A stretch of 64,000 nucleotides of DNA from an uncultured Thermoanaerobaculia bacterium (GTDB taxonomy: Bacteria > Acidobacteriota > Thermoanaerobaculia > Multivoradales > SZUA-115), in the NCBI GenBank assembly GCA_964420075.1, contig CAYQRE010000001.1, positions 133,675 to 197,674 of the forward strand. Direction: 5' to 3'. Below the pieces are notes generated by a model, which made no database searches, was not told the origin of the DNA, and was given only the letters and a program-made list of their open reading frames with translations. Positions 1 through 45,066 of the stretch are shown piece by piece. The position numbers and the translations under genes are program-made. Numbering within the stretch: the stretch's first letter is position 1; each line of letters begins with the position of its first letter.

Positions 1-172
1 CCACGCGGCGGTAGACGGCGTTCGATCGCGAATGCGACCAGGCTGTTGGAATGAGGAATAGGTTACCAGACTCACTCGCGACCGCCGGGCCCTTTCCCGT
101 GCGACAGAGACGGTACGACGGCACGACACCGCGGGGCCGGCAGCACCCGCCGCGGCACGGCCGCCGGGTTCC

Positions 173-1156
173 ATGACAACATTGCCGCTTCCAGGGCCTG
201 CCGTTTCGCCTCGGGCGCTCGCCGTCGCCTGCGACGCCGGGCCGAGCCCCGCGACCATGACGCCGCTCACCGTCCTCGTCACCACCCGCAACGAAGAGCT
301 CAACCTGGAGCGCACGCTCAGGAGCGTGCACGGCTTCGCGGACCAGATCCTGGTCATCGACTCGGAGAGCGAGGACGCCACGGTCGAGATCGCCCGCCGT
401 TACGCCGACGAGGTGGTCAACCTGCCCTACGAGCACGGCCGGATCATTCCCTGGATCTTCCAATGGGGGCTCGACCACCTGCCGATCCGCAACCCGTGGA
501 TCTTGATCCTCGAGGCCGACCAGGCGGTGACGCCGGCACTGCGCGCCGAGCTCGCCGCCCTGCTGGCGCGGCCGGAGGTGGCCGAGAACGGCTTCTTCAT
601 CCGCCGCCGGCAGATCTTCCGCGGCAAGCCGCTGCGCTTCGGCGGCTACGGCCGCAAGTACCTGATGAAGCTCTTCCGGCGCGGCTGCGGCGAGCTCGAC
701 CCCGTCGAGCAGGACACTCGCGTCTACGTGCGCGGCGCCACCGGCAAGCTCAAGGCGCCCCTCGAAGAGCTGAACCGCAAGGAGGAGGAGATCCTCTTCT
801 ACCTCGGCAAGCACCTGCGCTACGCCGAGGCCTTCGCGCAAGAGGAGCTGCGCCGCCGCCGCGAGAAGCTCGCCTTCAAGGCCCGCGGCCGCTTCTTCGG
901 CACCCCGGACGAACGGGTGCTGTGGCTCAAGGAGCGCTACTACCGCCTCCCTCTCCTCGTGCGCCCGAGCCTCTACTTCCTCTACCGGTACTTCTTCCTG
1001 CTCGGCATCCTCGACGGCAAGAACGGTTTCATCTTCCACTTCCTGCAGGCCTTCTGGTTCCGCCTGATCGTCGACGTGCGGCTCGCGGAGCTGCTGGCGA
1101 CTGCCCCAGGTGAAAAGGTCGTGGCCGCGGCGACCACGGCCGACGACACCCCATGA
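173..1156 (+). CDS. Glycosyltransferase family 2 (alternative, more likely start at ATG 257: MTPLTVLVTTRNEE...)
   Basis: N-terminal GT-A fold signature (VTTRNEE...ILVIDSESED DxD-like, RRYADEV) typical of GT2 LPS/EPS glycosyltransferases; stop overlaps start of next gene (ATGA coupling at 1153-1156). Confidence 0.72.
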   Translation: MTTLPLPGPAVSPRALAVACDAGPSPATMTPLTVLVTTRNEELNLERTLRSVHGFADQILVIDSESEDATVEIARRYADEVVNLPYEHGRIIPWIFQWGLDHLPIRNPWILILEADQAVTPALRAELAALLARPEVAENGFFIRRRQIFRGKPLRFGGYGRKYLMKLFRRGCGELDPVEQDTRVYVRGATGKLKAPLEELNRKEEEILFYLGKHLRYAEAFAQEELRRRREKLAFKARGRFFGTPDERVLWLKERYYRLPLLVRPSLYFLYRYFFLLGILDGKNGFIFHFLQAFWFRLIVDVRLAELLATAPGEKVVAAATTADDTP

Positions 1157-2949
1157 GCCATCCCATCCTCGGTCTCAACGCCTTCCACGCCGACGCCTCG
1201 GCCGCCGGCCTCGCCGACGGCCGGTTCGTCTGCGGGGTCGAAGAAGAACGCTTCCGCCGCGTCAAGCACTGGGCGGGCTTCCCCGAGCTCGCCATCCGCT
1301 TCTGCCTCGGTGAGATCAACGCCGGCCGCTTCGACGGCCTCACCGCGATCGCCGTCTCCCGGCAGCCGCGGGCCTACTTCCTGCAGAAAGTGCTGCTCGC
1401 CCTGCGCCACCCGCGCAGCCTTGGACGCGCCGCCGGCCGGGTGCGCAACCTGGCGGCGATCGCCTCCCTCGACGAGCGCTTCCAGGCCGCCTTCGGGGCC
1501 GAGCTCGGCAATCAGAAGCTGCCCACCATCCACCCCATCGAGCACCACCTGGCGCACATCGCCTCGGCGTTCTTCGCCTCGCCCTTCGAGGAGGCGATGT
1601 GCCTCACCGTCGACGGCTTCGGGGACTTCGTCTCGACCATGCAGGCGGTGGGCCGGGGCAACCGGATCGAGGTGCTCGAGCGCGTGCATTTCCCCCACTC
1701 GCTGGGCCTCTTCTACACCGCCATCACGCAGTTCCTCGGCTTCCACGGCTTCGGCGACGAATACAAAGTGATGGGCCTCGCGGCCTACGGCGAGCCACGC
1801 TTTGCGGCGGCCCTGGAGCAGGTGGTCCCGGCGCGAGCGGACGGCAGCTTCACGCTCGACCTCGCCTACTTCCGCCATCTCTCCGCAGGCGTCGACATGA
1901 GCTGGGATGACGGCGAGCCGCGGCTGGGGATGGTCTTCACCCCCAAGCTCGCCGAGCTCCTGGGGCCGGCCCGGGCGCCGCGAGCCGAGCTCGAGCAGCG
2001 CCACAAAGACCTCGCCGCCTCGCTGCAGGCGGTCTACGAGGCGCGCTTCTTCGCTCTCGTGCGCGCCCTGCAAAAGCGCACTGACCTCAAGCGCCTGGCG
2101 CTCGCCGGCGGCTGCGCCATGAACTCGCTCGCCAACGGCAAGCTCTTCGAGCGCACGGACGTCGAAGAGGTCTACATCCAGGCGGCGGCCGGCGACGCCG
2201 GCACCTCGCTGGGGGCCGCCCTCTACGTACAGCACGCCGTGCTCGGCCTGCCGCGCTCGTTCGTGATGGAGCATTGCTCCTGGGGGCCGGCCTACGGCGA
2301 GGCGGCGGTGCGCTCGGCGCTCGCCGCTGCGCTGCCCGGCTCGGGAGGGCAGGACGGGCGGCACGCCTACGAGGGCGAAGAGCTGCTGCTCGCCACGGCC
2401 CCCGACCTCGCGACCCTCTGCCGAGAGACCGCCCAGGGCCTCGCCGCTGGCGAGGTGGTGGGCTGGTATCAGGGCCGCTCCGAGTGGGGGCCGCGGGCCC
2501 TCGGCAACCGCTCGATCCTCGCCGATCCTCGCCGGTCCGACATGAAAGAGGTCCTCAACCTGAAGATCAAGCGGCGGGAGTCCTTCCGGCCCTTTGCGCC
2601 GTCGATCCTCGAGGAAGAGACCGCCGCCTGGTTCACCGTCGACTACCCCGATCCCTTCATGATCAAGGTCTACCCGATCCGCCCGGAGCGCCGGGCCCAG
2701 GTGCCGGCGGTGACCCACGTCGACGGTACGGGTCGGCTGCAGACCGTCGCCCAGCGCACCAACCCCCGCTACTGGCAGCTGATCGACGCCTTCCGGCGTG
2801 AGACGGGGGTGCCAATGGTGCTCAACACCTCGTTCAACGAGAACGAGCCGATCGTCAACACCCCTACCGAGGCCCTCGACTGCTTCCTGCGTACCAAGAT
2901 GGACCGCCTGGTGATGGGGGACGTGGTGCTGCGGCGGCCGGGCTCCTGA
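1153..2949 (+). CDS. Carbamoyltransferase, NodU/CmcH family
   Basis: 598 aa; N-terminal ILGLNAFHADASAA...EEERF motif and central KVMGLAAYGEP motif characteristic of NodU/CmcH O-carbamoyltransferases; C-terminal YrdC-like half (NLKIKRRESFRPFAPS). Confidence 0.85.
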   Translation: MSHPILGLNAFHADASAAGLADGRFVCGVEEERFRRVKHWAGFPELAIRFCLGEINAGRFDGLTAIAVSRQPRAYFLQKVLLALRHPRSLGRAAGRVRNLAAIASLDERFQAAFGAELGNQKLPTIHPIEHHLAHIASAFFASPFEEAMCLTVDGFGDFVSTMQAVGRGNRIEVLERVHFPHSLGLFYTAITQFLGFHGFGDEYKVMGLAAYGEPRFAAALEQVVPARADGSFTLDLAYFRHLSAGVDMSWDDGEPRLGMVFTPKLAELLGPARAPRAELEQRHKDLAASLQAVYEARFFALVRALQKRTDLKRLALAGGCAMNSLANGKLFERTDVEEVYIQAAAGDAGTSLGAALYVQHAVLGLPRSFVMEHCSWGPAYGEAAVRSALAAALPGSGGQDGRHAYEGEELLLATAPDLATLCRETAQGLAAGEVVGWYQGRSEWGPRALGNRSILADPRRSDMKEVLNLKIKRRESFRPFAPSILEEETAAWFTVDYPDPFMIKVYPIRPERRAQVPAVTHVDGTGRLQTVAQRTNPRYWQLIDAFRRETGVPMVLNTSFNENEPIVNTPTEALDCFLRTKMDRLVMGDVVLRRPGS

Positions 2950-2954
2950 ACCCG

Positions 2955-3827
2955 ATGAAGGCCCTGGTGCGCCGCCTGCTCCCCGCCGGGGCTTACGCGG
3001 CGCTGGCTGCCGGCTTCGACCGCCTGCGCCGGCTCCACCCGGAGCGCCGCCGCCGGGCGCGCCAGCACCGGCAGCTCAACCGTGGCGCGGGGGATGACGC
3101 GATGGTGCTGCGGCCGGGCCTGCGCCTCGCTGTTGACCCGCGCGCCCGCGCTTCCTTCGAGCACTTCTGCTTCCGTTCGCTGGCGATGGCCCGCGAGCTC
3201 GACGCCTTCCTCGCCGCGCGCGAGGGCCGCACTCGGCTGGTCGACGTCGGGGCCCTGCACGGGCTCTTCGCCCTCGCGTTCACCGCCGGCCGGCCGGCCG
3301 CCCGTGCCCTCGCCATCGACCCCTCCCCCGTGGCCCAGGAGACCCTCCGCGCCAACCTCGCGCGCAACCCGGACTGCCAGGTCGAGGCCCTGCAGCTCGC
3401 CCTCGGCGACCGCGACGGCACCCTCGCCATGCGCCAGGAGTGGGAGCACCTCGAGGCCCTGCCGGCGGGCGCGCAGGCCGACGCCGCCGGGGTCCTGACC
3501 GTCGAGCAGATCACCCTCGACAGCCTGCTCGCCGGCCGCGCCTTCGTGCCGGACCTCCTCAAGATCGACGTCGAGGGCTACGAGCTGGCGGTGCTCAGGG
3601 GGGCCCGCGCCACCCTGGAGCAGGCCCGCCCATGGCTCTTCTTGGAGCTCCATCCACAGCGCTTGGCGGAGCTCGGGGCCTCCGCCACCGCCGTCGTCGC
3701 CTGGCTCGCCGCTGCCGGCTATTCTCTGCAAGCCATCGGCGGCGGCAGCCTGCAGCGCCACCTCGCGGCCGGGCGGGTGTTCCGGGCGGTGGCAAGGTCG
3801 CGCGAGGACGGCCCCGCCCGGGGATGA
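2955..3827 (+). CDS. FkbM-family SAM-dependent methyltransferase
   Basis: LVDVGALHGLFALAF (SAM-binding) and LKIDVEGYELAVLRGA motif diagnostic of FkbM methyltransferases. Confidence 0.72.
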   Translation: MKALVRRLLPAGAYAALAAGFDRLRRLHPERRRRARQHRQLNRGAGDDAMVLRPGLRLAVDPRARASFEHFCFRSLAMARELDAFLAAREGRTRLVDVGALHGLFALAFTAGRPAARALAIDPSPVAQETLRANLARNPDCQVEALQLALGDRDGTLAMRQEWEHLEALPAGAQADAAGVLTVEQITLDSLLAGRAFVPDLLKIDVEGYELAVLRGARATLEQARPWLFLELHPQRLAELGASATAVVAWLAAAGYSLQAIGGGSLQRHLAAGRVFRAVARSREDGPARG

Positions 3828-3933
3828 ATCCCCGGGCTACCGACCTCGGCCCCTGGCGGGGCCCCGGGACGGACCCCCCTTCAGGCCGGACTGGGAGGGG
3901 CCGGTTTCAAACCGACCCTGGTCAACCACCCTC

Positions 3934-4836
3934 CTACCGTCGCAGCCGCCGCAGCAGCTCGCCGACGAGGAGCGAAAGCGGGCCGGCCATGCGAGCCGGG
4001 CGGCTGCGCAGGGCGACGGGCCCGGCGTCGGCCGCTGGCGGCAGGGCCAGGGCCTCGGCGAGGCGGTGGCGCAGCGGGCTCACGAAATGGAAGCCGACAG
4101 CGCCAGGATCGAGCGGGGTCGCGGCGCCGGGGATCACCAGCTGCCTGGGGTCGAGGAGATGGCAGCCGGCGCGGCCGCCGAGGAGGGCCCAGGCCGTCTG
4201 CTCGGCCCAGGCCGGCGGCTGCAGGAGCCCGGGCCGGGCGACGAAGCGTTCGAGGAGAGCGAGGTCGAGGTGACGGCGGTCGAAGGCCAGGATGCCGGTG
4301 TTGACGCGGCCGGGCAGCCGCAGCCAGCGACCCCGCAGGCGATGCCAAGAGCGCACGGTGTAGGCGTGCTGCACGTCTGCCATGAAGAGGGCGCCGCAGC
4401 CCTCCGGGCGGCTGAACAGGCCGCGGAACGACCGCCGAAAGAGCACGTCGGTGTCGCAGTAGGCGACGCTGTCGCCGGCCGCGAGCAGGGGGACGTCGAG
4501 GAGCTTCGCGGCAAGGGGGCTTGCGGCCCGAAAGGCCCGCAGCGCCGGGTAGGGCGCCAAGAGCTCGGCGAGGGCCCGGTCGGCCGCGGACCGGGGCAGG
4601 ACGTCAAGGGGGCCGACGGCCGCGGCGAGGCGCTCATGGTCGGCGGCCGTGAGCGTGCCGTCGTCGTGGACGCGCAGGCGAAGCGGCTCGACCGAGAGGC
4701 GGACGAGGCTCGCGAGGCAGGGCAGGGCGGTCGCCAGCTGGCCGGTGCCGAGCAGCGTGGCGACGACGCTCGGCACGCGGTCTGCCGCGGGCCCCGCTGG
4801 GCCACCCCCTACGCCGTCTGTTTGGCCGTCCGGCAT
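3934..4836 (-). CDS. Putative nucleotide-diphospho-sugar transferase (GT8-like glycosyltransferase)
   Basis: 300 aa on minus strand; DxD-like YCDTDVLF and VNTGILAFD motifs reminiscent of GT8/GT-A transferases; overlapping plus-strand ORFs are Arg/Pro-rich artefacts. Family assignment tentative. Confidence 0.42.
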   Translation of the reverse strand: MPDGQTDGVGGGPAGPAADRVPSVVATLLGTGQLATALPCLASLVRLSVEPLRLRVHDDGTLTAADHERLAAAVGPLDVLPRSAADRALAELLAPYPALRAFRAASPLAAKLLDVPLLAAGDSVAYCDTDVLFRRSFRGLFSRPEGCGALFMADVQHAYTVRSWHRLRGRWLRLPGRVNTGILAFDRRHLDLALLERFVARPGLLQPPAWAEQTAWALLGGRAGCHLLDPRQLVIPGAATPLDPGAVGFHFVSPLRHRLAEALALPPAADAGPVALRSRPARMAGPLSLLVGELLRRLRR

Positions 4837-4870
4837 CGAGCGACTATTCTAGCGAGCCACTTCGAACATC

Positions 4871-5953
4871 ATGACCGCGCCCGCCCCTGCTGCTGCGGCC
4901 TTCCGCCGCCTGCGCCGCCTGCTCCTCGGGCTCCTCGCTGTCGCCGTCTGCGGCGAGGTGGCGCTCCGCCTGGCCGACGCCGCCCTGGACCGCCCCACCG
5001 GCTCGCTCTACGACCACATCGTTCCCGCGGGCGACCGCTACAAGCTGACCCCCGGCGGCCGGGTGGTGGCGCCCGAGCGCTACGGAGACATCGAGTACCG
5101 CTTCAACCGCCAGGGCTACCGCGACCGCGACCACGACCCGGCCGCGCCAGGCGAGCGCATCGTCCTCCTCGGGGACTCGGTGACCTTCGGCCTCGGCGCC
5201 GCCTACGCCGACATCTACCCGGTGCAGCTCGCCGGCCTCCTCTCCCAGCGCTATGGCCCGCGCTACGAGGTGGTGAACCTCGCGATCTTCGCCTACGACA
5301 CCCAGCACGAGCTGGAGGCCCTCGCCGAGGACGGTCTCGGCGACCGCCCGACACTGGTGGTGGTGCAGTTCTACCTCAACGATTTCGCCATCCATGCGCC
5401 CCGTGGTGACGGGCCGCCGCCCCGCCTCAGCCTCGGCCAGCGCCTGGTCGGCCTCAAGAACCTGTTGCTCTACCGCTCGAACCTCTACCGCCGCCTGCAC
5501 CAGCTGGCGACCACGGCGACGTACCGCTTCTTCCATGACCGCCGCCGGCTCGCGCACCCCGCGACGCTCAACCGCGCCGAGCCGGTCGACAAGCTGCGCT
5601 ATCTGACCGACCACCCCGACGATGCCGACGTCCCTGCCTTCGTCGCCCTGCGCCGCATCGCCGACCTCGCTCGCGAGCACGGCGCACGCACGCTCGTCCT
5701 GCTTTCGCCCGACGAGGTACAGCTGTTCGACGCCGCCTACGACGGCATCCAGGCCCGCTTCGCCCGCTTCGCGGCGAACGCCGAGATCCCCTTCCTGGAC
5801 CTTCTCCCCGGCCTGCGGGCCGAGCCCAAGCACCACAAGCTCTTCCTCGACGGGGTGCATTTGAGCCCGCGCGGCCACCGGCGGGTGGCCGAGCTGCTGC
5901 TCGCCGAGCTCGTCCGCCGCGGGCTCGTCGGCGAGGCCGCCCCGGCCCCGTGA
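4871..5953 (+). CDS. SGNH/GDSL-family hydrolase (likely partner of the downstream O-acetyltransferase)
   Basis: N-terminal TM/signal, block I GDSx motif (IVLLGDSVTFG), C-terminal DGVHLSPRGH (block V D-x-x-H); stop overlaps next start. Confidence 0.6.
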   Translation: MTAPAPAAAAFRRLRRLLLGLLAVAVCGEVALRLADAALDRPTGSLYDHIVPAGDRYKLTPGGRVVAPERYGDIEYRFNRQGYRDRDHDPAAPGERIVLLGDSVTFGLGAAYADIYPVQLAGLLSQRYGPRYEVVNLAIFAYDTQHELEALAEDGLGDRPTLVVVQFYLNDFAIHAPRGDGPPPRLSLGQRLVGLKNLLLYRSNLYRRLHQLATTATYRFFHDRRRLAHPATLNRAEPVDKLRYLTDHPDDADVPAFVALRRIADLAREHGARTLVLLSPDEVQLFDAAYDGIQARFARFAANAEIPFLDLLPGLRAEPKHHKLFLDGVHLSPRGHRRVAELLLAELVRRGLVGEAAPAP

Positions 5954-7077
5954 GCCGCGGCGCCAGCGGCCCGGCCGCCCCCCACTTTCCCGGGCTCGAC
6001 AGCCTGCGGGCCTACGCCGCGCTCTTCGTGGTGATCGGTCACGTCCCCCTCAATCAGGCGAGCCTCGGCCTGCCCAACCCGCACTACGGGGCTCTCTTCT
6101 TCCGCGGCGCCACGGCGGTCTCCTTCTTCTTCACCCTGAGCGGCTTCCTGATCACCTACCTGCTGCTCGGCGAGCAGGCCCGGCGGGGCCGCATCGACGT
6201 CAAGGCCTTCTACCTGCGGCGGGTGCTGCGGATCTGGCCCCTCTACTACACGGTGGTCCTCTGCGGCCTCCTCTTCTACAACGCCCTGCTGCCGCGGCTG
6301 GGGATCGCCTACGAGGTGCGCTACCCGCTGCCCCTGGCCGCGGCGCTCTACGTGCTCTTCCTGCCCAATTTGATGAACAGCCTCTACGCGGTGGGCGGCA
6401 TTCTCAACCCCACCTGGTCGATCGGCATCGAAGAACAGTTCTACCTCTCCTGGGCGCCGGCCCTGCGGCGCTGGCACCACCGGCTGCCGGCCCTGGCGGC
6501 AGCGGTGCTCGTCGCCTCGCTTGCCACCTTCCTGTTGAGCCCCCTCGCCGTGGGAGAGGTGGGATGGGCGCCCAAGTTCCTCGACCAGCTGAAGTTCCAC
6601 TTCATGGCGGCGGGTGCGCTGGCCGCCTGGGCGCTCTTCCACCACCGCGAGCGGCTGCTGGCGAGCCCCGTCTTTCGCCGGCCGTGGCTCCAGGGGCTCC
6701 TCGGTCTCCTGGTGGTGCAGTTCTACTTCGTCGACGTCTTCCACTTCGGCCGCAACACCGCCGAGCTCTTTCAGCTCGCCCTCTACCCCTGGCTGCTCGT
6801 CGAGATCGGCGCCAACCCGGCGCGCCGCCTGCCGCTCACCAATCGGCCGGCCGAGTACCTGGGGCGGATCTCCTACGGGCTCTACATGTTGCACATGCCG
6901 GTGGTCTACGCCACGTCCTGGCTCTTCGCCCGCAGCGGTTGGTTGCGGGGCCATCTGCTGCTCTATGTGCTCGCCTACTACGGCCTCGCCCTGGGCCTGA
7001 CAGTCGGCGTCGCGGCCCTCTCGTATCGCTACCTCGAAACCCCCATCCTGCGGCTCAAGGAGCGCTTCAGCCGTTGA
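5950..7077 (+). CDS. Acyltransferase family 3 (OafA/YrhL-like membrane O-acetyltransferase)
   Basis: Multi-TM protein with N-terminal LDSLRAYAALFVVIGH and RIWPLYY motifs typical of acyltransferase_3. Confidence 0.78.
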   Translation: MSRGASGPAAPHFPGLDSLRAYAALFVVIGHVPLNQASLGLPNPHYGALFFRGATAVSFFFTLSGFLITYLLLGEQARRGRIDVKAFYLRRVLRIWPLYYTVVLCGLLFYNALLPRLGIAYEVRYPLPLAAALYVLFLPNLMNSLYAVGGILNPTWSIGIEEQFYLSWAPALRRWHHRLPALAAAVLVASLATFLLSPLAVGEVGWAPKFLDQLKFHFMAAGALAAWALFHHRERLLASPVFRRPWLQGLLGLLVVQFYFVDVFHFGRNTAELFQLALYPWLLVEIGANPARRLPLTNRPAEYLGRISYGLYMLHMPVVYATSWLFARSGWLRGHLLLYVLAYYGLALGLTVGVAALSYRYLETPILRLKERFSR

Positions 7078-7097
7078 TCCGCGCGCCGGCGCGGCGC

Positions 7098-7109
7098 GGC
7101 TGGTAGACT
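7098..7109 (+). promoter_or_regulatory. GGCTGGTAGACT element (extended -10-like TGgTAGACT), copy 1 of 2
   Basis: Identical 12-mer occurs again at 10224-10235, 11 nt before the wecA-like GTG. A related GGTTACCAGACT lies at 61-72 and an isolated TAGACT at 29122-29127, 8 nt before pcm ATG. Confidence 0.4.
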
Positions 7110-7189
7110 TCCATGTTGTCCCCGAAGCCGTCTCGAGGCATGCCCGCGAGGCTCTTGCTCGACATTTCTAGCCAAATGAGAATCTCAAG

Positions 7190-8209
7190 ATGACCTGGAA
7201 AGAGAAGCGCGTCCTCGTCACCGGCGGGGCTTCCTTCATCAGCTCCCACCTGATCGACCTCCTGGTCGCCAAGGGCGCCACCCGCATCCGCGTGGTGGAC
7301 GACCTGTCGAGCGGCAGGCTGGCCAACATCCAGCACCACCTCGACGCCGGGGTCGTGGAGATGCGCAAGGCGGACCTCCTCGAGCCGGGGGTGGCCCAGG
7401 AGTCGGTGCGCGACATCGACGTCGTCTTCCACCTCGCCGCCATCCACGGCGGGCGCGGCTTCGTGGACCTCCACCAGGCGGCCTGCGCCCAGAACCTGGC
7501 GATGGACGGCCTCCTGGTCAAGGCAGCCTACGAGTCGGGGGTGGACAAGTTCGTCTTCGCCTCCTCCGGCTGCGTCTACCCCAACTTCCTGCAGCAGGAC
7601 GTTCGCCAGGAGCTCTACCTGACCGAGGACATGGTCGGGCCGCCCTACGACGCCGACAACATGTACGGCTGGGCGAAGCTGATGACGGAGATGACGCTCA
7701 AGGCCTACCACAAGGACTTCGGCTTCAAGTCGGCCTCGTGCCGCTTCTTCACCGTCTACGGCGAGCGGGGGGTGGAAAACCACGCGGTGATCGCGATGAT
7801 CGCCCGCGCCTTCGTCAAGCAGAGCCCCTTCGAGATTTGGGGGGACGGCACCCAGGTGCGCAACTGGACCTACGTGGGTGACATCGTCTCCGGCATGGTG
7901 CTCGCCGCCGAGAGGATCGACGACGGCACCGCCGTCAACCTCGGCACCGAGGAGCGCACGCGGGTGATCGACGCCGTGTATGAGGTGCTGCGCTACACGG
8001 ACCACCAGGCCGAGATCAAGCTCCTCACCCACATGCCCACCGGGCCGCTCAACCGGGTGGCGAAGAACGACCTCGCCCGCGAGCTCCTCGGCTGGGAGCC
8101 CAAGATGAGCTTCATCGACGGCCTGCACCGCACGATCGACTGGTACTTCGCCTCCAAGCGGCGCGAGGAGGTCGGCGGCTACCTCGCCGAGATGCTGACC
8201 GAGCGGTAG
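7190..8209 (+). CDS. NAD-dependent epimerase/dehydratase (nucleotide-sugar epimerase/dehydratase family)
   Basis: Rossmann motif VLVTGGASFISSHL, catalytic YxxxK region (NMYGWAKLMTE), 339 aa; extended SDR family. Confidence 0.85.
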   Translation: MTWKEKRVLVTGGASFISSHLIDLLVAKGATRIRVVDDLSSGRLANIQHHLDAGVVEMRKADLLEPGVAQESVRDIDVVFHLAAIHGGRGFVDLHQAACAQNLAMDGLLVKAAYESGVDKFVFASSGCVYPNFLQQDVRQELYLTEDMVGPPYDADNMYGWAKLMTEMTLKAYHKDFGFKSASCRFFTVYGERGVENHAVIAMIARAFVKQSPFEIWGDGTQVRNWTYVGDIVSGMVLAAERIDDGTAVNLGTEERTRVIDAVYEVLRYTDHQAEIKLLTHMPTGPLNRVAKNDLARELLGWEPKMSFIDGLHRTIDWYFASKRREEVGGYLAEMLTER

Positions 8210-8238
8210 GGGGCGAAGGCCACCTGCCGCGCAGCTCG

Positions 8239-9348
8239 ATGCCCCGCCTCGTCTACCTCTGCGACTGGCTGCCGCCGGATTTCGGGGCCGTGGGCCAGTA
8301 CAGCCAGCTCTTCGCCCGCGAGCGGGCGGCGGCCGGTGAGGAGGTGGTGCTCGCCGGCTTGTCGTCGACGGCCAGCTCCGTCGAGAGCGAGACCGTGGGG
8401 GCGGGCCGGTTGACCACGGTGCGTTTGCACGCCCCGACCTACGACCGCGCCGACTTTGCCAGCCGCGCCCGCTGGACCCTCAGCACCAACGCCCGGCTGC
8501 TCTGGCGGCTGCGCCGCGAGCTGGCGGCGGCCGACGAGGTGCTGTTCACCGGCAGCCCGCCCTTCCTGCTCCATCTGGTGGCGCCGCTCAACAGCTTGCT
8601 GCGCAAACAGCTCACCTACCGCATCACCGACTTCCATCCCGAGGTGCTGATGGCGGAGCTCGGCCGCGTGCCCTGGCCGCTCGCCGCCTTCTATCGGCTG
8701 ACCCTCGCCCTGCGCCGCCAGGTGGATGGCTTCGAGGTGCTGGGCGAGGACCAGCGCCGGCGCCTCCTCGCCATCGACGTCCCGGCCGAGCGCATCCGCC
8801 TGAAACGCGACCCCAGCCCGGTCGACCTGCCACCCGGTACCCAGCCCCTCGCCTTACCCGGCGAGCTCGCTGGCAAGGTGGTGCTGCTCTACTCGGGGAA
8901 CTTCGGGGTGGCCCACGATCACGAGACGTTCGTCGAAGGCTACCGCCGCCACCACCGCGCGGGCTCGGGGCGGGTGGGGCTGTGGCTCAACGCCACGGGA
9001 GCGCGGGCCGACAAGGTGGAGGGCCTGCTGCGCGACGCCGGCCTTCCCCACCACCGCTCGCGCCCCGTTCCCCTCGCCGAGCTGCCGCGGTTGCTGGTCA
9101 CCCCCGCCGCCCACCTCATCACCCTGCGTGACGAGCTGGTGGGCTTCGTGCTGCCCTCGAAGGTCTACGGCTGCCTGCAGTCGGGCCTGCCCCTCCTCTA
9201 CGTGGGGAGCGCCGACTCCGACGTCCACCTGCTGGCCGCCGAGGCCCTACCGCCCGAGCGCTACTTCCGGGCCGCCGTGGGAGACGCCACGGCCGTCGCC
9301 GCCGCCCTCGAAGCGATCGCCGACCTCGCCGGGTCGCCCGCCCGATGA
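8239..9348 (+). CDS. Glycosyltransferase family 4 (WcaI/WbuB-like)
   Basis: C-terminal GT-B motif ...LPSKVYGCLQSGLPLLYVG (E-x7-E region equivalent) and LYSGNFG block. Confidence 0.6.
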   Translation: MPRLVYLCDWLPPDFGAVGQYSQLFARERAAAGEEVVLAGLSSTASSVESETVGAGRLTTVRLHAPTYDRADFASRARWTLSTNARLLWRLRRELAAADEVLFTGSPPFLLHLVAPLNSLLRKQLTYRITDFHPEVLMAELGRVPWPLAAFYRLTLALRRQVDGFEVLGEDQRRRLLAIDVPAERIRLKRDPSPVDLPPGTQPLALPGELAGKVVLLYSGNFGVAHDHETFVEGYRRHHRAGSGRVGLWLNATGARADKVEGLLRDAGLPHHRSRPVPLAELPRLLVTPAAHLITLRDELVGFVLPSKVYGCLQSGLPLLYVGSADSDVHLLAAEALPPERYFRAAVGDATAVAAALEAIADLAGSPAR

Positions 9349-10139
9349 GCGCGGGGCTCAAGGCGGCGCTGCGCAGCCGCCTCCCTCGCCTCTTCCTCGC
9401 CCTGCGCGATCTGCGCTACCGGCTCCGCCCGGAACGCCCGGACCCGTCGCTCACGGAGCTCCTCACCCGCCTGTCTCCCGGAGCGCTCCGGGTGCAGAGC
9501 GGCCCCTTCGCCGCCATGACCTACCTGCCGCAGGCGCTGGGGAGCGGTCTCCTGCCGAAGATCGCCGGCACCTACGAGGCCGAGCTCCATCCGGTCCTCG
9601 AGCGAGCGATCGGCCGCCGGCCACGACGGCTGGTGAACATTGGCGCGGCGGAGGGCTACTATGCCGTCGGCCTCGCCCGCCGGCTGCCGGAGCTCGCTGT
9701 CTATGCCTTTGACCTCGAGCCCTTGGCTTTGCGTCGCCTGCCCGCCCTGGCGGCGGCCAACGGGGTAGCCGGGCGGGTGCAGTTCGAGAACCGCTGCACT
9801 CCCGCTCGCCTCGCCGTGCTGGCCGGCCCAGGCTGCCTCGTGGTCTGCGACTGCGAGGGCTGCGAGGCGGCGCTGCTCGACCCGCGGCAAGCCCCGGCGC
9901 TTGCCGCCGCGGACCTCCTCGTCGAGCTTCACCGGGCCGGCGACCCCGGCCGGCCCGAGGCCGTCCTCGCCCGCTTCGCCACCAGCCACCACTGCGAGCT
10001 CATCGAGGCCCAGCCGCCACCCGGCTCCCTGCCGCCTCAGCTGGCGGCCCGCCTGCGACCCGAGGAGCACGCCCGGGTGACCGACGAGGGACGGATCGAC
10101 GGCTTCCTCTGGGCCTGGCTCACGCCCCGGCAGCGCTGA
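9345..10139 (+). CDS. Putative methyltransferase (FkbM-like / class I SAM-dependent)
   Basis: LVNIGAAEGYYAVGLA SAM-binding-like motif and CDCEGCE resembling FkbM IDxEGxE; start overlaps previous stop. Tentative. Confidence 0.45.
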   Translation: MSAGLKAALRSRLPRLFLALRDLRYRLRPERPDPSLTELLTRLSPGALRVQSGPFAAMTYLPQALGSGLLPKIAGTYEAELHPVLERAIGRRPRRLVNIGAAEGYYAVGLARRLPELAVYAFDLEPLALRRLPALAAANGVAGRVQFENRCTPARLAVLAGPGCLVVCDCEGCEAALLDPRQAPALAAADLLVELHRAGDPGRPEAVLARFATSHHCELIEAQPPPGSLPPQLAARLRPEEHARVTDEGRIDGFLWAWLTPRQR

Positions 10140-10161
10140 TCCCACTCTCGCTCTCGTCGCA

Positions 10162-10182
10162 GGGCGGGTTTGAAACCCGCCC
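10162..10182 (+). terminator. GC-rich hairpin (GGGCGGGT-ttgaa-ACCCGCCC) after the methyltransferase gene
   Basis: Perfect 8-bp GC stem with 5-nt loop 23 nt after stop codon at 10139; no U-tract, as is common in high-GC genomes. Confidence 0.4.
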
Positions 10183-10223
10183 CTACACAACCCGGGCGCC
10201 ATTCGGCCCCCTGTCTCATGGCC

Positions 10224-10235
10224 GGCTGGTAGACT
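10224..10235 (+). promoter_or_regulatory. GGCTGGTAGACT element, copy 2 (putative leaderless promoter of the WecA-like gene)
   Basis: See copy 1; -10-like hexamer ends 11 nt before GTG 10247. Confidence 0.4.
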
Positions 10236-10246
10236 GCGGCCCTGCC

Positions 10247-11356
10247 GTGCGAAGCGTCGTCATCACCGCCTTGTGGGCCGCGGCGACCGCGGGCCTGGTC
10301 ACCAATCTGCTGGTGCCGGTGGCGGTGCGGCTGGCCCTTTTCCTGCGCATCCTCGACCATCCGAGCGAGCGCAAGACGCAGAGCCGTGCCGTGCCGCGGC
10401 TGGGTGGCCTCGCCATCTTCGCGGGCTTTGCCCTCGGTTCCCTCACCGTGCTGTTGATGAAGTGGAACCAGTGGAACCTGGGGATCTCCCGCTCCGAGCT
10501 GGTGGCCCTCTCGGTCGGCACCTTCCTGGTCTTCCTGGTAGGGGTGATCGACGACATCTTCGACGTCTCGGTGGCCAAGAAGCTGCTCATCGAGCTGGCC
10601 GCCGCCTACTTGCTGGTGCACATCGGCTGGTCCTTCCACGTGCTCGCCCTGCCGGGCGTCGGCAACGTCGAGCTCGGGGTCTTCGGCGAGCTGGTGTCGT
10701 TGCTGTGGATCGTCGGCTGCACGAACGCCATCAACCTGATCGACGGCCTCGACGGCCTCGCCGCCGGGGTGGTGGCGATCGTCGCCGTGGGGCTGTGGAT
10801 CTACGCCCTCGACATCGGCAACCTGCTGGCGGTGGTGCTGCTCGCGGCGATCGTCGGCGCCTGCCTGGGCTTTCTGCGCCACAACTGGGCGCCGGCCCGC
10901 ATCTTCATGGGCGATTCGGGCTCCCTCACCCTCGGTTTCCTGCTCGCCGCCACCAGCGTGCAGTCCTCGCTCAAGGCGCCGGCGGCGGTCGCCATCCTGG
11001 TTCCCATCCTCGCCCTCGGCCTGCCGGTCATCGACACCTTGCTGGTGATGTTCGTGCGCTTCCTCGATCGCCCGCACGGCCCCTTTCTCGAACGCTTCCT
11101 GCGCATGTTCCGCGCCGACCGCAACCACCTGCACCACACCCTCGAGCCGATCGTGGCGCACCGCGGCGGCATCGTGACAGCGATCTACGCCACCGCTATC
11201 CTCTTCTGCGGCATGGCGATCGCCGTCGCCCTGACCCACAACGCGACGCTGGGGTTGGGGCTGGTGGTGCTGGAGTTCCTCGCCGTGCTGGCGATGCGCA
11301 ACCTGGGGCGGATGCGCCGGGGCGGCGCCGAGGCAACGGCCGAGCCGCCGCCGTAG
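10247..11356 (+). CDS. Polyprenyl-phosphate N-acetylhexosamine-1-phosphate transferase (WecA/TagO/MraY family)
   Basis: GTG start; 10-11 TM protein with LDHPSERKTQSRAVPRLGG (DxPxxRKxH-like) and NLIDGLDGLAAG motifs characteristic of the MraY/WecA superfamily. TAGACT -10-like element ends 11 nt upstream. Confidence 0.8.
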   Translation: MRSVVITALWAAATAGLVTNLLVPVAVRLALFLRILDHPSERKTQSRAVPRLGGLAIFAGFALGSLTVLLMKWNQWNLGISRSELVALSVGTFLVFLVGVIDDIFDVSVAKKLLIELAAAYLLVHIGWSFHVLALPGVGNVELGVFGELVSLLWIVGCTNAINLIDGLDGLAAGVVAIVAVGLWIYALDIGNLLAVVLLAAIVGACLGFLRHNWAPARIFMGDSGSLTLGFLLAATSVQSSLKAPAAVAILVPILALGLPVIDTLLVMFVRFLDRPHGPFLERFLRMFRADRNHLHHTLEPIVAHRGGIVTAIYATAILFCGMAIAVALTHNATLGLGLVVLEFLAVLAMRNLGRMRRGGAEATAEPPP

Positions 11357-11365
11357 CGCCGCACC

Positions 11366-11530
11366 TCAGAAGATCGTGTAGATGAAGGGGGCGGACACCT
11401 GGCCGGCAGCGATCAGCAGGCCGAGCAGGCCGAGCACCAGGAGCAGCGGCACGATCCAATAGGCCTTGTGCTCACGGGCGAAGGCCAGCAGCTCCGCGAG
11501 CAGCCGGCCGCCGTGTCGTAACTTTCCCAT
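11366..11530 (-). CDS. DUF5989 / SxtK-like small membrane protein (54 aa; below ORF-track cutoff, translated by hand)
   Basis: Reverse strand ATG 11530..11528, TGA 11368..11366: MGKLRHGGRLLAELLAFAREHKAYWIVPLLLVLGLLGLLIAAGQVSAPFIYTIF; basic N-terminus, single TM helix and C-terminal APFIYTIF match DUF5989 proteins found downstream of NodU-type carbamoyltransferases. Confidence 0.6.
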   Translation of the reverse strand: MGKLRHGGRLLAELLAFAREHKAYWIVPLLLVLGLLGLLIAAGQVSAPFIYTIF

Positions 11531-11595
11531 CTCCGGTTCCCTTTCTCACCACGCCGGCGCCCGCGAGAGAGCACCGGCCCAAGCCGTCATGGCCC

Positions 11596-13443
11596 TCAAT
11601 CCAGCGTGAAGGTCTCCCGCCAGTTCTCCTTCTCCTCCCAGCCCGGCTGCTCGCGCTTGGCGAGGAGGAAGTCCTCCAGCACCAAGTAGTCCATCTCGCA
11701 GCGCATGAAGCAGCGGTAGGCGTCCTCCGGCGTGCAGACGATCGGCTCGCCGCGGACGTTGAAGCTGGTGTTGATCAGGATGCCGTAGCCCGTGCGCGCC
11801 TCGAAGGCCGAGATCAGAGCGTGGTAGCGGGGGTTGGTCTCGGCCGACACCGACTGGATGCGCGCCGAGCCGTCGACGTGGGTGATCGCCGGCACGTCCG
11901 AGCGCACCCGGTTGACCCACTCGAGGAGGTCGTCGCTGCGCACCGCGGCCGGCTGCTCGACGCAGCGCTCGCCCTGCACCTGGGCCACCAGCAGCATGTA
12001 GGGCGACGGGCGGTCGAGCGCGAAGAAGTCGCCGATCCTCTCCTCGAGCACCGAGGGGGCGAACGGCCGGAAGCTCTCCCGGTACTTGATCTTGAGGTTC
12101 ATGATCGACTGCATCTTGGGCGAGCGGGCGTCGCCGACGATCGAGCGGTTGCCGAGCGCCCGCGGCCCGAACTCCATGCGGCCCTGGAAGAGGCCGATGA
12201 CGTTCTCTTCGGCGATCAGCCGGGCGATCTCCGCGGCCCACTCGCCCTCACCCAACCGCCGCGCCGCATAGCCCTTGGCGGCGAGGAACTCGCCGATCTG
12301 CTCGTTCGAGAAGGCCGGCCCGAGGTAGGCGCCCTGCATGCCGTCGCCCCCCGGTCGCCGGCGGTTGGCCGGCTGCGGGCGGGGCTTGCCCAGACCGCAG
12401 TGGTAGTAGGCGAGCGCCGCGCCGACGGCGCCGCCGGCATCGCCGGCCGCCGGCTGGATGAAGAGGTCGTCGAAGATCCCCTCACGCAGGAGCACGCCAT
12501 TCGCCACGCAGTTGAGGGCCACGCCCCCGGCCAGGCAGAGCTTGCGCTTGCCGGTGAGCTGGCGGGCATGGCGGGCGGCGCGCAGCACGATCTCCTCGGT
12601 CACCGCCTGGATCGAGCGCGCGAGGTCCATCTCGCGGCGGGTGATCCGACCCTCGGGCTGCCGCGGCGGGCCACCGAAGAGCTTCTCGAAGCGCGGGCCG
12701 GTCATCCGCCAGCCGGCGAGGTAGTCGAAGTAGGAGAGGTCGAGGTGGAAGGAGCCGTCGGCCTTGAGGTCGACCAGCTCGCGCAGGATCAGGTCGCGAT
12801 AGACCGGCTCGCCGTAGGGCGCCAGGCCCATCAGCTTGTACTCGCCGGAGTTGACCTTGAAGCCCGTGAAGTAGGTGAAGGCCGAGTAGAGCAGGCCGAG
12901 CGAGTGGGGGAAGCGCATCTCCTCGACCAGCCGCAGGCTCGCCCCTTCGCCGACCCCGACGGTGGTGGTGGACCACTCGCCGACCCCGTCGAGGGTGAGG
13001 GTCGCGGCCTCCTCGAACGGCGAGGGGAAGAAGGCGCTCGCGGCGTGGGACTCGTGGTGCTCGGCGTAGAGGATGGGCGGCGGCTCGGTGAGGCCCAGGG
13101 TCGCGAGAGCGTCCTCGATCTGCGGGGTGAGCCAAAGCCGGTCGCGCAGCCACAGGGGGATCGCCTCCAGGTATTGGCTGAGGCCGCGCGGTGCCACGGA
13201 GAGATAGGTCTCGAGCAGGCGATGGAGCTTGAGGATCGGCTTGTCGTAGAACACCACCGCGTCGAGGCCGCCGTCGGTGATGCCGCCCTCGGCGAGGCAG
13301 TAGCGGCTCGCCTCGAGGGGGAAGCCGGGATCGTGCTTCTTGCGCGTGAAGCGCTCTTCCTGCGCCGCCGCGACGACCACGCCGTCTTCCACCAGGCAGG
13401 CGGCCGAATCGTGGTAGAAGGCGCTCAAGCCAAGGATTTTCAA
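11596..13443 (-). CDS. Carbamoyltransferase, NodU/CmcH family (second copy)
   Basis: 615 aa; ILGLSAFYHDSAACLVEDG...QEERFTRKKHD and KLMGLAPYGEP motifs; C-terminal NLKIKYRESFRPFAPS. Confidence 0.85.
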   Translation of the reverse strand: MKILGLSAFYHDSAACLVEDGVVVAAAQEERFTRKKHDPGFPLEASRYCLAEGGITDGGLDAVVFYDKPILKLHRLLETYLSVAPRGLSQYLEAIPLWLRDRLWLTPQIEDALATLGLTEPPPILYAEHHESHAASAFFPSPFEEAATLTLDGVGEWSTTTVGVGEGASLRLVEEMRFPHSLGLLYSAFTYFTGFKVNSGEYKLMGLAPYGEPVYRDLILRELVDLKADGSFHLDLSYFDYLAGWRMTGPRFEKLFGGPPRQPEGRITRREMDLARSIQAVTEEIVLRAARHARQLTGKRKLCLAGGVALNCVANGVLLREGIFDDLFIQPAAGDAGGAVGAALAYYHCGLGKPRPQPANRRRPGGDGMQGAYLGPAFSNEQIGEFLAAKGYAARRLGEGEWAAEIARLIAEENVIGLFQGRMEFGPRALGNRSIVGDARSPKMQSIMNLKIKYRESFRPFAPSVLEERIGDFFALDRPSPYMLLVAQVQGERCVEQPAAVRSDDLLEWVNRVRSDVPAITHVDGSARIQSVSAETNPRYHALISAFEARTGYGILINTSFNVRGEPIVCTPEDAYRCFMRCEMDYLVLEDFLLAKREQPGWEEKENWRETFTLD

Positions 13444-13522
13444 GCGCTTACCTCTCGCAACCGGGTCGTCCCACGAGCTCGCTCAGCGGCCTGGGTCCGG
13501 CGGTTCCACCGTTGTCGATGCC

Positions 13523-14026
13523 TCAGAACTGATGACGGTAATAGGCCTCGGTGCGCGCCACCTGCGGCCGCTGGTGCCAGTAGGAAGGCGTCGAGTCGTC
13601 GAACCACCGCTCGAGCTTGTCCCGCCGCCCGCGGCGCATGATCCGGCCGACGAGGGTGAAGAAGAGGAGGAAGACCGGCGTCAGCAGCAGCACGGCGAGA
13701 AAGCGCCCCACCAGCTTGCCGAAGGCCGCGAGGCCCTTGCCGAGGGCGGCGTAGGCACCCCGCGGCGAGGCCAGGGCAGCGAGCGCCACCAGCCCGGAGA
13801 GCACGGCGGCGACGAGGGCCAGGCGGGGATGGTGGAAAAAGGAGAGGCCCCCGGCGACGAGGCCGCCGACGACGGCGCGCAGCAGCCCTTCGCGACGAAG
13901 GGCCGCGGCCGAGGGCCCTGCCGCGGCAGCCGGCTCGCGCCAGCGCCAGATCGCCGCCGCGGCCTCCGGCCGGCCGGCCAAGAGGGAAGCGGAAGACGGT
14001 TCGCGAAGCTCGCCAGCTGGTTCCAT
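13523..14026 (-). CDS. SxtJ-like small membrane protein
   Basis: 167 aa, 3-4 TM helices, C-terminal ...YWHQRPQVARTEAYYRHQF resembling the SxtJ family C-terminus; sits immediately upstream of the carbamoyltransferase, as in sxtI-J-K-like triads. Confidence 0.5.
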   Translation of the reverse strand: MEPAGELREPSSASLLAGRPEAAAAIWRWREPAAAAGPSAAALRREGLLRAVVGGLVAGGLSFFHHPRLALVAAVLSGLVALAALASPRGAYAALGKGLAAFGKLVGRFLAVLLLTPVFLLFFTLVGRIMRRGRRDKLERWFDDSTPSYWHQRPQVARTEAYYRHQF

Positions 14027-14118
14027 CGAGCCCGGGAGCTTATCAGGAGGGTGCTCTCAGGACCACGGAGCCCGGCCCGGCCAGCGGGCCGAGCGGCGTG
14101 TAGGATGCGGCTCCTGCC

Positions 14119-14877
14119 ATGCGCGACGACCACCGACCCGCCCTCCTCGTCACCGGCGCGAGCCGTGGCATCGGGGCGGCCACCGCTCTGCTGGCGGCGG
14201 CGCGGGGCTACCAGGTGGCGGTCAACTACCGCCAGGACGCGGCCGCCGCCCAGCGCGTGGTGGCGGCGATCACGGCCGCCGGCGGCCACGCCGTGGCCCT
14301 CCAGGCCGACGTCTCCTGCGAGGCAGACGTGCTCCGCCTGTTCGCCGACTGCGACCGCCAGCTCGGCCCGCTCTCGGCGCTGGTCAACAACGCCGGCATC
14401 CTGGCGCCGCAGATGCGGCTAGAGGCGATGACCGCGGCACGGCTCGAGCAGATCTTCGCCACCAACGTAGTGGGCGCCTTCCTCTGTGCTCGCGAGGCGG
14501 TGCGCCGGCTGTCTACCCGCCACGGCGGACGCGGCGGCGCCATCGTCAACCTCTCTTCACGCGCCGCCGTGCTCGGCTCGCCGGGCGAGTACGTGGACTA
14601 CGCCGCCTCCAAGGGGGCCCTCGACACCCTGACGGTGGGGCTCGCCAAGGAGGTGGCGGCCGAGGGGATCCGCGTCAACGGCGTGCGCGCCGGGTTCATC
14701 CACACCGAGATCCACGCCAGCGGCGGCGAGCCCGACCGCGTCGAGCGCCTCGCCAGCCAGCTGCCGATGCAGCGCGGCGGCGCGCCCGAGGAGGTGGCGC
14801 GCGCCGTCCTCTGGCTGCTCTCGGCCGAGGCCTCGTACGTTACCGGCGCCCTGCTCGACGCGGCCGGCGGTCGCTGA
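14119..14877 (+). CDS. SDR-family short-chain dehydrogenase/reductase
   Basis: TGASRGIGAA Rossmann motif, NNAG, catalytic Y-x3-K (YAASKGAL). Confidence 0.82.
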   Translation: MRDDHRPALLVTGASRGIGAATALLAAARGYQVAVNYRQDAAAAQRVVAAITAAGGHAVALQADVSCEADVLRLFADCDRQLGPLSALVNNAGILAPQMRLEAMTAARLEQIFATNVVGAFLCAREAVRRLSTRHGGRGGAIVNLSSRAAVLGSPGEYVDYAASKGALDTLTVGLAKEVAAEGIRVNGVRAGFIHTEIHASGGEPDRVERLASQLPMQRGGAPEEVARAVLWLLSAEASYVTGALLDAAGGR

Positions 14878-25795: not shown

Positions 25796-25809
25796 GTCCG
25801 TGCCGCGGC

Positions 25810-30575: not shown

Positions 30576-30579
30576 CGGC

Positions 30580-45038: not shown

Positions 45039-45066
45039 GCTCGCTTCAGCTCTGGGAGAGACCCCG

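Follow-up and report, generated by a model that had tools for sequence, protein, structure and literature searches.

What does a bacterium build with a locus in which two NodU/CmcH carbamoyltransferases stand among glycosyltransferases? The question is raised by the left end of a 64,000-nucleotide stretch of DNA from an uncultured Thermoanaerobaculia bacterium (GenBank assembly GCA_964420075.1, contig CAYQRE010000001.1, positions 133,675 to 197,674 of the forward strand), which we call the window and within which positions are counted. Carbamoyl groups have rarely been reported on bacterial surface glycans, and the Thermoanaerobaculia are an abundant, mostly uncultured soil lineage whose envelope is almost undescribed. 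We propose that positions 257-14026 form a compact locus that assembles and decorates an undecaprenyl-phosphate-linked envelope glycan, O-antigen-like or exopolysaccharide-like, and we put the probability of this reading at roughly 0.65. An original prediction, made from the DNA sequence alone, had described the product as a carbamoylated, methylated and acetylated glycan. This appears reasonable, as the gene set fits a locus of lipid-linked glycan assembly and decoration, although a histidine of the first carbamoyltransferase is displaced. Carbamoyl, methyl and acetyl decoration is a fair prediction because both carbamoyltransferases are full length and have kept their metal ligands and YrdC-like motifs.

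Genes of the locus and their conservation

The window has a GC content of 72%, at which spurious long open reading frames (ORFs) are common. Genes were therefore called by GC3 frame plot (GC at third codon positions) and then checked against Pfam and NCBIfam. On the plus strand, the locus opens with a family-2 glycosyltransferase gene (GT2; g1, 257-1156; PF00535, E 1e-9). Its ORF opens at 173, but the true start is probably at 257, as called in L097, a metagenomic contig that is 99.75% identical to the window and reaches further left. The stop of g1 overlaps the start of the first carbamoyltransferase gene (g2, hereafter CT-A; 1153-2949, plus strand) by 4 nt, and CT-A is translationally coupled to this GT2. 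The product of CT-A is a NodU/CmcH (class III) carbamoyltransferase (Carbam_trans_N, E 4e-52; Carbam_trans_C, E 4e-72). Both of its domains are full length (PF02543 positions 2-346 of 346, PF16861 1-170 of 170) and far above the gathering scores, and it matches PDB entry 7xb6, NovN, GdmN and TobZ over the full length (E 1e-70 to 1e-81).

The 254 relatives of CT-A in the species-representative genome set come nearly all from metagenome-assembled genomes (MAGs) of Thermoanaerobaculia or other Acidobacteriota and are 67-76% identical. We compared 80 CT-A loci with 10-kb flanks, or 81 when L001, a fragment of the source genome, is included. The GT2 is present with CT-A in 66 of these 81, at 66-81% identity; taken as a pair, the two are 70-80% identical across some 66 related genomes. 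Across the 80 loci, the GT2 gene and CT-A form a conserved block on one side, the epimerase, GT-B and WecA genes form another on the other side (roughly 60-86% identity for the two blocks), and the middle varies. O-antigen and exopolysaccharide (EPS) loci are built in this way, with conserved flanks around a serotype-like variable middle. CT-A falls within the conserved flanks, and the methyl and acetyl genes lie in the middle that varies. The view of CT-A as an occasional decoration gene thus does not hold; it ranks with the best-conserved genes in the locus.

Outside the Acidobacteriota, CT-A orthologs with 67-68% identity are found in three Tepidisphaerales (Planctomycetota) MAGs (L054, L055 and L071), and in two of the three (L054 and L071) a related GT2 adjoins. 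The planctomycete orthologs are almost as close to CT-A as those within the Acidobacteriota. The closest homologue beyond these, at 49.6% identity, lies on a plasmid of Bradyrhizobium sp. ISRA443 (L094), directly after a GT2 gene (31% identity to g1); this plasmid is conjugative. The pairing of GT2 and CT-A outside the Acidobacteriota supports a functional coupling of the two and a polysaccharide substrate. Judged from sequence, it also suggests that the GT2-carbamoyltransferase pair has been transferred across phyla.

The right-hand conserved block begins with an extended short-chain dehydrogenase/reductase (SDR) sugar-nucleotide epimerase (g7, 7190-8209, plus strand; PF01370, E 7e-46). It is the most conserved gene of the locus, with most orthologs 81-86% identical, where identities for g7, g8 and g10 refer to those loci whose flank reaches the gene; the few weaker matches are probably paralogues. 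The best solved relatives of g7 are GDP-mannose 3,5-epimerases (E 7e-38). All its NCBIfam equivalog matches are below cut-off, and its substrate is therefore not fixed by family. The next gene, g8 (8239-9348, plus strand), would encode a GT-B glycosyltransferase, weakly WcaI-like. It gave no Pfam match and no PDB sequence match, and the GT4 assignment made earlier reduces to a weak NCBIfam match to the WcaI family over residues 211-362, in the C-terminal half (E 3.5e-9, below cut-off). Its orthologs are mostly 65-77% identical and are placed between g7 and g10. At the right end of the related loci stand the orthologs of g10 (10247-11356, plus strand; PF00953, E 5e-38), at 55-74% identity. This gene encodes a polyprenyl-phosphate N-acetylhexosamine (HexNAc)-1-phosphate transferase of the WecA/MraY family with about 11 hydrophobic segments. 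TIGR02380 (WecA) scores 99 bits against it and mraY 79 bits, both below their cut-offs.

The variable middle contains FkbM, SGNH, acyltransferase-3 (AT3), g4 and g9 genes in differing combinations and orders. In other loci their place is taken by aminotransferases, GFO-type oxidoreductases, radical-SAM enzymes (SAM, S-adenosylmethionine), further glycosyltransferases and proteins with multiple transmembrane (TM) segments. A radical-SAM/SPASM gene lies between the GT2 gene and CT-A, directly upstream of the latter, in at least six related loci (L026:8908-9999; L021, L023, L048, L049 and L073), and another (L088:13496-14587) stands beside an FkbM gene, between the WecA gene and a gene trio like the CT-B operon described below. 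Radical-SAM enzymes are unusual in a glycan locus.

Of the two FkbM methyltransferases predicted originally, one stands. The product of g3 (2955-3827, plus strand) is an FkbM-family SAM methyltransferase (PF05050, E 3e-20, 73.6 bits against a cut-off of 22.7; TIGR01444, 96.5 bits against 37.7), present in 23 of the 81 loci at varying positions. For g9 (9345-10139, plus strand), TIGR01444 reached 22.3 bits (cut-off 37.7; E 1.4e-4) and PF13649 an E of 0.012, both weak, and PF05050 was not matched in the Pfam scan. The homologues of g9 carry PF13649, PF05175 or PF13847 and are named SAM-dependent methyltransferases. hhalign placed g9 against the g3 family with a probability of 72%, along 54 residues of the SAM motif. 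Because its likeness to FkbM is confined to that motif, we assign one FkbM enzyme (g3) and one generic class I SAM-dependent methyltransferase (g9).

The gene between g3 and the acetylation pair, g4 (3934-4836, minus strand), had been called GT8-like. This holds at the level of the fold and finds no counterpart in sequence profiles: neither Pfam nor NCBIfam gave a match, PF01501 included. Its homologues are all annotated as hypothetical and carry no Pfam domain, and every one with a named source comes from Thermoanaerobaculia. An AlphaFold2 model built with 39 sequences has a mean predicted local distance difference test score (pLDDT) of 90.4. Its top Foldseek matches in the PDB are XXYLT1, UGGT, LgtC, LARGE1 and glycogenin, retaining GT-A enzymes of families GT8/GT24 (probability 1.0, TM-score about 0.5, 12-16% identity), and D128-x-D130 is invariant. 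The predicted structure thus points, at the fold level only, to a glycosyltransferase of an orphan family whose fold is GT8-like (retaining GT-A). If the longest ORF of g4 is taken, only 34 bp separate it from the start of the divergent g5 (window 4776-4871), and the first 20 residues or so of this ORF are missing from the family consensus. The real start is probably an internal GTG a few codons downstream.

The acetylation pair consists of g5 (4871-5953, plus strand), an SGNH/GDSL hydrolase-fold protein (PF13472, E 1e-14), and g6 (5950-7077, plus strand), an AT3 integral membrane O-acyltransferase (PF01757, E 1e-25) with several predicted TM segments. The translation of g5 contains the motifs LLGDSVTFG (GDS) and DGVHLS (DxxH) and one N-terminal hydrophobic segment at residues 14-32, a membrane anchor. 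Counted from the locus table, 11 of the 15 loci carrying g5 also have g6. Pfam and NCBIfam thereby bore out the SGNH/AT3 pair of the original prediction, as they did its WecA-like initiating transferase, its GT2 and its epimerase.

In most relatives, several GT4 genes in a row and a gene for a Wzy/WaaL-like protein with 10-12 TM segments, which has no Pfam match, lie upstream of the GT2, and some also have a GT9. This block is absent in the present genome and in L004 and L008. A truncation of the locus at the left edge of the window, suggested by the five GT4 genes and the Wzy/WaaL-like gene upstream in relatives, was ruled out by L097. In that contig, the left neighbour is a divergent gene for an unrelated 947-residue secreted repeat protein (L097:1-645, minus strand), which ends 12 bp before window position 1 and contains repeat units of the form T-x-x-F-T-x-x-N...F-T-D-x-L-P-x-G. 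This may be a surface protein. To the right of g12, the first gene of the CT-B operon, follow genes for an SDR, RidA, a patatin-like protein, DUF4386 and an S41 peptidase, none of them glycan-related. Given the left flank in L097, the locus here comprises the genes g1 to g10 and, convergent with them, the CT-B operon.

Overlaps of 4 nt occur at g1/g2, g5/g6 and g8/g9. Strand arrangement alone divides the locus into at least four transcription units. A scan of 1-14500 for sigma-70 promoters and terminators gave no excess over shuffled sequence and is uninformative on operons; Rfam and tRNA scans of the whole window gave no match.

The CT-B operon

The second carbamoyltransferase gene (g11, hereafter CT-B; 11596-13443, minus strand) begins with TTG and encodes 615 residues. 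It bears out the other NodU/CmcH enzyme of the original prediction, again with both domains full length (Carbam_trans_N, E 4e-94; Carbam_trans_C, E 2e-72). NovN, GdmN and TobZ are matched over the full length at E 1e-75 to 1e-90, as is 7xb6. CT-B is a canonical member of the family, with the general base H11-D12 and the metal ligands H129, H133, D152 and D335; it is 41% identical to CT-A. Orthologs of CT-B, 58-62% identical, occur on planctomycete, Gemmatirosa (Gemmatimonadota) and Sinorhizobium replicons, and small genes like those described next adjoin them.

CT-B forms an operon on the minus strand, convergent on g1-g10, in the order g12, CT-B, DUF5989. The DUF5989 gene (11366-11530, minus strand), which the original prediction had overlooked, encodes a 54-residue single-pass membrane protein, SxtK-like, ending in APFIYTIF. 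The identical gene in contig L082 is annotated PF19451, and the product is 44% identical to an Aquisphaera protein that the PGAP pipeline names 'DUF5989 family protein'. For g12 (13523-14026, minus strand), to which no function had been given, neither Pfam nor NCBIfam returned a match, SxtJ included. It encodes a protein with two hydrophobic segments and has 18 homologues; every one that was checked sits just upstream of a carbamoyltransferase and a DUF5989 gene. The profile of the g12 family aligns with an Aquisphaera 'SxtJ family membrane protein' with an hhalign probability of 94.5% (E 7e-8), collinear to the C-terminus, and the two proteins share 26% identity in pairwise BLASTP. We therefore regard g12 as an SxtJ-like two-pass membrane protein. 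With DUF5989 and SxtJ-like partners flanking CT-B, the operon corresponds to an SxtJ/SxtI/SxtK trio, and by its sequence CT-B is a member of a widespread SxtI-like group.

The neighbourhoods of such trios in other genomes are informative. On three planctomycete plasmids, the trio adjoins exosortase/EpsI/tyrosine-kinase EPS genes and a sugar O-acetyltransferase. In Leisingera, CT-B-type genes lie beside an SGNH gene, a second carbamoyltransferase gene and yjbFH; in Leisingera sp. S132 (plasmid L101, 1-7833), an SGNH hydrolase gene has a carbamoyltransferase gene on either side, and the exopolysaccharide genes yjbH/yjbF follow immediately downstream. In L089, L090 and L092, the trio stands among housekeeping genes but has SGNH (SGNH/AlgX), AT3 and methyltransferase neighbours of its own. 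Linkage of the trio to exported polysaccharides and to their O-acylation thus recurs. We think that the CT-B operon is a membrane-associated polysaccharide carbamoyltransferase module.

Contigs that carry the exact g12 protein (L082-L087 from Logan, six sequencing runs) end inside or just past CT-B in several independent assemblies, and a contig with the exact CT-A protein is only 2.6 kb long; for the exact CT-B protein, too, the contigs recovered were short. Assemblies seem to break within the locus, perhaps because co-occurring strains differ there.

Alternative explanations and the active site of CT-A

Several points weigh against the proposed locus. CT-B lies in a transcription unit separate from g1-g10, and in the 80 related loci the 10-kb flanks of CT-A contain no homologue of CT-B, g12 or DUF5989; in about eight of these loci sequence continues past the WecA gene, as read from the gene maps. 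No Wzx, Wzy, ABC transporter, ligase, Wza/Wzc or polysaccharide exporter is encoded in the 64-kb window. The acceptor specificity of NodU/CmcH enzymes is not readable from sequence. Finally, CT-A reads F-H12-A13-D14, and in an ungapped register Ala occupies the canonical general-base position and His lies one residue earlier. In GdmN, the mutation H27N abolishes activity (PMC9633730), and CT-A is without a histidine at this position.

The first two of these points argue that CT-B and its two small partners are a self-contained module for a different polymer encoded elsewhere, brought beside the locus by an accident of gene order. We regard this as a serious possibility, somewhat short of even odds. 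The original prediction had placed the two carbamoyltransferases in one glycan locus; that they form one unit is not borne out by the separate convergent operon and the 80 loci, and trios also stand among housekeeping genes, with acylation and methylation genes of their own. Conversely, a trio adjoins a CT-A-type locus here and, as the one further case seen, in a second species (L088; g12 64% identical), and there it is again convergent on the WecA end. The presence of the trio inside or beside EPS loci in other phyla likewise makes its linkage to polysaccharides recurrent. As to the concern that the locus might be split into unrelated operons, CT-B does have a transcription unit of its own among the four or more that strand arrangement alone defines.

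A different question is which polymer the locus makes. It could build a part of lipopolysaccharide (LPS), namely outer core and O-unit, with CT-A acting as the functional analogue of Pseudomonas WapO on a conserved core sugar. CT-A and its GT2 are conserved class-wide as core genes are, and the region downstream varies in the manner of an O-antigen region. The upstream GT4 run and Wzy/WaaL-like protein of most relatives would also suit such a locus, as would the occasional GT9, a member of the heptosyltransferase family, and WapO itself sits in the Pseudomonas core cluster (PMC8005017). However, in the present genome that upstream block is absent and a divergent secreted repeat protein takes its place, and no lipid A or 3-deoxy-D-manno-octulosonic acid (Kdo) genes are nearby. 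Moreover, the closest non-acidobacterial homologue of CT-A lies in a locus whose Wza-like and Wzc-like export genes are characteristic of EPS or capsule. We therefore consider the LPS assignment tentative and rather unlikely, and keep the broader description of an O-antigen-like or EPS-like envelope glycan.

The displaced histidine deserves separate discussion. The pattern H-(A/G/P)-D is present in all 68 extracted CT-A orthologs and in the Bradyrhizobium plasmid homologue, and the canonical H-D is found instead in TobZ (H14-D15), GdmN (H27-D28), NovN, 7xb6 and CT-B. In PDB entry 3vex, the H14N mutant of TobZ, Asn is exactly at the canonical His position. In addition, the residue equivalent to Y82 of GdmN is Ser in CT-A, as read from the alignment. 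CT-A might therefore not be a usual O-carbamoyltransferase: it could be inactive, or it could use another nucleophile, such as an amino group, or another acceptor geometry. This appears improbable, since the metal ligands and the carbamoyl-AMP-forming motifs are intact. Metal-binding residues in GdmN are H133, H137, D156 and D333 (PMC9633730), and alignment to GdmN together with a motif scan places the ligands of CT-A at H131, H135, D154 and D348. The YrdC-like carbamoyl-AMP motifs GRxExGPRALGxRS, KxRExFRPFAP, THVDGxxRxQ and NTSFN are all present in both CT-A and CT-B. The identity of about 75% across the class speaks for an active enzyme under strong purifying selection, the His is still only one residue away, and the length of this loop varies between family members. 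With its metal and adenylation sites preserved and its sequence strongly constrained, the CT-A subfamily is probably active, and we read the displaced His as a subfamily trait of an active enzyme. A loss of catalytic residues, which would have spoken against carbamoylation, is thus not seen in either enzyme, with the caveat of the one-residue displacement in CT-A.

We consider it very improbable that the region is a secondary-metabolite cluster and makes a carbamoylated small molecule (aminoglycoside-, saxitoxin- or moenomycin-like). All solved relatives of both carbamoyltransferases do tailor antibiotics, and SxtI, SxtJ and SxtK come from the saxitoxin cluster (PMC2679770). However, genes for scaffold-forming enzymes (polyketide synthase, nonribosomal peptide synthetase, cyclitol or amidinotransferase genes) are absent from the locus and the window, the locus includes a polyprenyl-phosphate transferase together with an AT3/SGNH pair and several glycosyltransferases, and it is conserved class-wide around an O-antigen-like variable middle.

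Proposed pathway and comparison with known systems

From the domain content, catalytic motifs, conservation pattern and gene neighbourhoods, we infer the following pathway for an undecaprenyl-phosphate-linked glycan, in which every substrate, the order of the steps and the action of CT-B on the same polymer are conjectural. The chain would be started by g10, which would transfer HexNAc-1-phosphate to undecaprenyl phosphate. Further sugars would be added by g8, g1 and, in this strain, g4, with at least one of them supplied by g7 as an epimerised nucleotide sugar. At the cytoplasmic face, CT-A would convert ATP and carbamoyl phosphate to carbamoyl-AMP and pass the carbamoyl group to a hydroxyl of a sugar, with the residue added by the coupled GT2 as the likeliest acceptor. 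The strain-variable g3 and g9 would add O-methyl groups, and the product would be flipped by proteins whose genes are located elsewhere. After export, O-acetylation is expected to proceed by transfer of the acetyl group across the membrane by the AT3 protein g6 to the anchored SGNH protein g5. CT-B may be held at the membrane by g12 and the DUF5989 protein, and it may modify the present glycan at a further position or else a different exported polysaccharide.

If this is correct, the glycan has a constant element, the carbamoyl group, and strain-specific ones, the methyl and acetyl groups. A wider view is that a class-wide envelope glycan of Thermoanaerobaculia is defined by carbamoylation through an undescribed GT2-coupled, displaced-His subfamily, which also moved into Tepidisphaerales and a Bradyrhizobium plasmid, and that the trio of CT-B, SxtJ-like and DUF5989 proteins is a general membrane-tethered machine for carbamoylating exopolysaccharides in many phyla. 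We find this view doubtful in its full extent. Two testable leads on gene function emerge from the analysis, namely the GT2-coupled carbamoyltransferase subfamily with an H-x-D motif and the widespread carbamoyltransferase/SxtJ/DUF5989 trio, which, if its proposed role is correct, would provide a first function for SxtJ and SxtK. The new elements are the lineage, the class-wide conservation of a carbamoyltransferase, the GT2-coupled H-x-D subfamily and the orphan GT8-like family. Each element has a precedent otherwise, and the current understanding of how such loci work is unchanged.

A few further features of the window lie outside the locus. A MazE-like antitoxin and PIN-domain toxin pair is encoded at 22296-22933 (minus strand), according to the annotation of the identical contig L083 mapped onto the window. 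At 24380-25894 (minus strand), a gene for SelA (L-seryl-tRNA selenium transferase) adjoins a class I/II aminotransferase gene; the window contains no tRNA, hence no tRNA-Sec. A 987-residue CHAT-domain protein (30514-33477, plus strand) is encoded near an FGE-sulfatase/DinB-domain protein and a beta-helix protein (25810-29111). The 1007-residue product of 44323-47346 (plus strand) has as its sole Pfam match the middle domain of the hydrazine synthase alpha subunit (E 1e-9).

A search of the literature for O-antigens or EPS with assigned carbamoyltransferases, and for carbamoyltransferases of Thermoanaerobaculia, returned only Pseudomonas WapO and the Nod factors. WapO (PA5005) is a putative 7-O-carbamoyltransferase of the LPS core heptose, conserved taxon-wide while the neighbouring glycosyltransferases vary (PMC8005017). 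The likeness to CT-A considered here is one of family and gene context: both are NodU/CmcH enzymes found taxon-wide among glycosyltransferases for an envelope glycan. Unlike the setting of WapO, the present locus has no heptose kinase or Kdo genes, and CT-A is distinguished by its H-A-D variant and by a GT2 partner of its own.

With a Wzy-dependent O-antigen or EPS cluster, the locus shares the initiating transferase (g10) and conserved flanks around a variable middle, but not Wzx/Wzy or an ABC transporter. The locus on the Bradyrhizobium sp. ISRA443 plasmid (NZ_CP094524.1, 210-237 kb) likewise has a run of glycosyltransferases, then a GT2 and then an enzyme of the CT-A subfamily with H-A-D. 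By pipeline annotation only, it also carries gmd/fcl, Wza-like, Wzc-like tyrosine kinase and O-antigen-ligase-family genes. Unlike the present locus, it contains no AT3/SGNH, FkbM or WecA genes within the 25 kb inspected. In O-antigen acetyltransferases of the OafA/OafB type, an AT3 membrane domain is fused to a periplasm-facing SGNH domain. The same AT3 and SGNH pairing, with the GDS and DxxH motifs, is seen in g5 and g6, but here the two are separate overlapping genes with the SGNH gene first.

TobZ, GdmN and NovN share with CT-A and CT-B the Kae1-like and YrdC-like domains, the H-H-D-D metal site and the carbamoyl-AMP motifs. In contrast, these enzymes act on antibiotics, and the C-terminal dimerisation domain of GdmN is absent from CT-A and CT-B. 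The saxitoxin cluster contains sxtI (1839 bp), sxtJ (405 bp) and sxtK (165 bp), and SxtJ and SxtK have no known function (PMC2679770). Their gene sizes match those of CT-B (615 residues), the two-TM g12 and the 54-residue DUF5989 protein, which form one operon here. The order is J-I-K here and I-J-K in the saxitoxin cluster, g12 is a divergent relative of SxtJ, and the context is that of a polysaccharide and not of a toxin.

The closest parallel in decoration chemistry is provided by the Nod factors of Sinorhizobium fredii NGR234. They are secreted lipochitooligosaccharides made by NodABC, unlike the polyprenol-linked polymer proposed here. NodU itself is only distantly related to CT-A and CT-B, which reach 140-150 bits with the NCBIfam NodU model against a cut-off of 1000; the nodU match covers 42% of CT-A at 33% identity. 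Among the modifying enzymes of NGR234, we take NoeI to be FkbM-type and NolL to be AT3-type. On one glycan, NodU adds a 6-O-carbamoyl, NolO a 3-O-carbamoyl, NoeI a 2-O-methyl and NolL an O-acetyl group (PMC4881576). Two carbamoyltransferases on one glycan or in one locus, taken in the original prediction as a sign of a heavily decorated, unusual glycan, thus have precedents in NodU and NolO (PMC4881576) and in the EPS region of the Leisingera plasmid, and the Nod-factor set of NGR234 comprises the same decoration chemistry as the present locus, including the two carbamoyltransferases.

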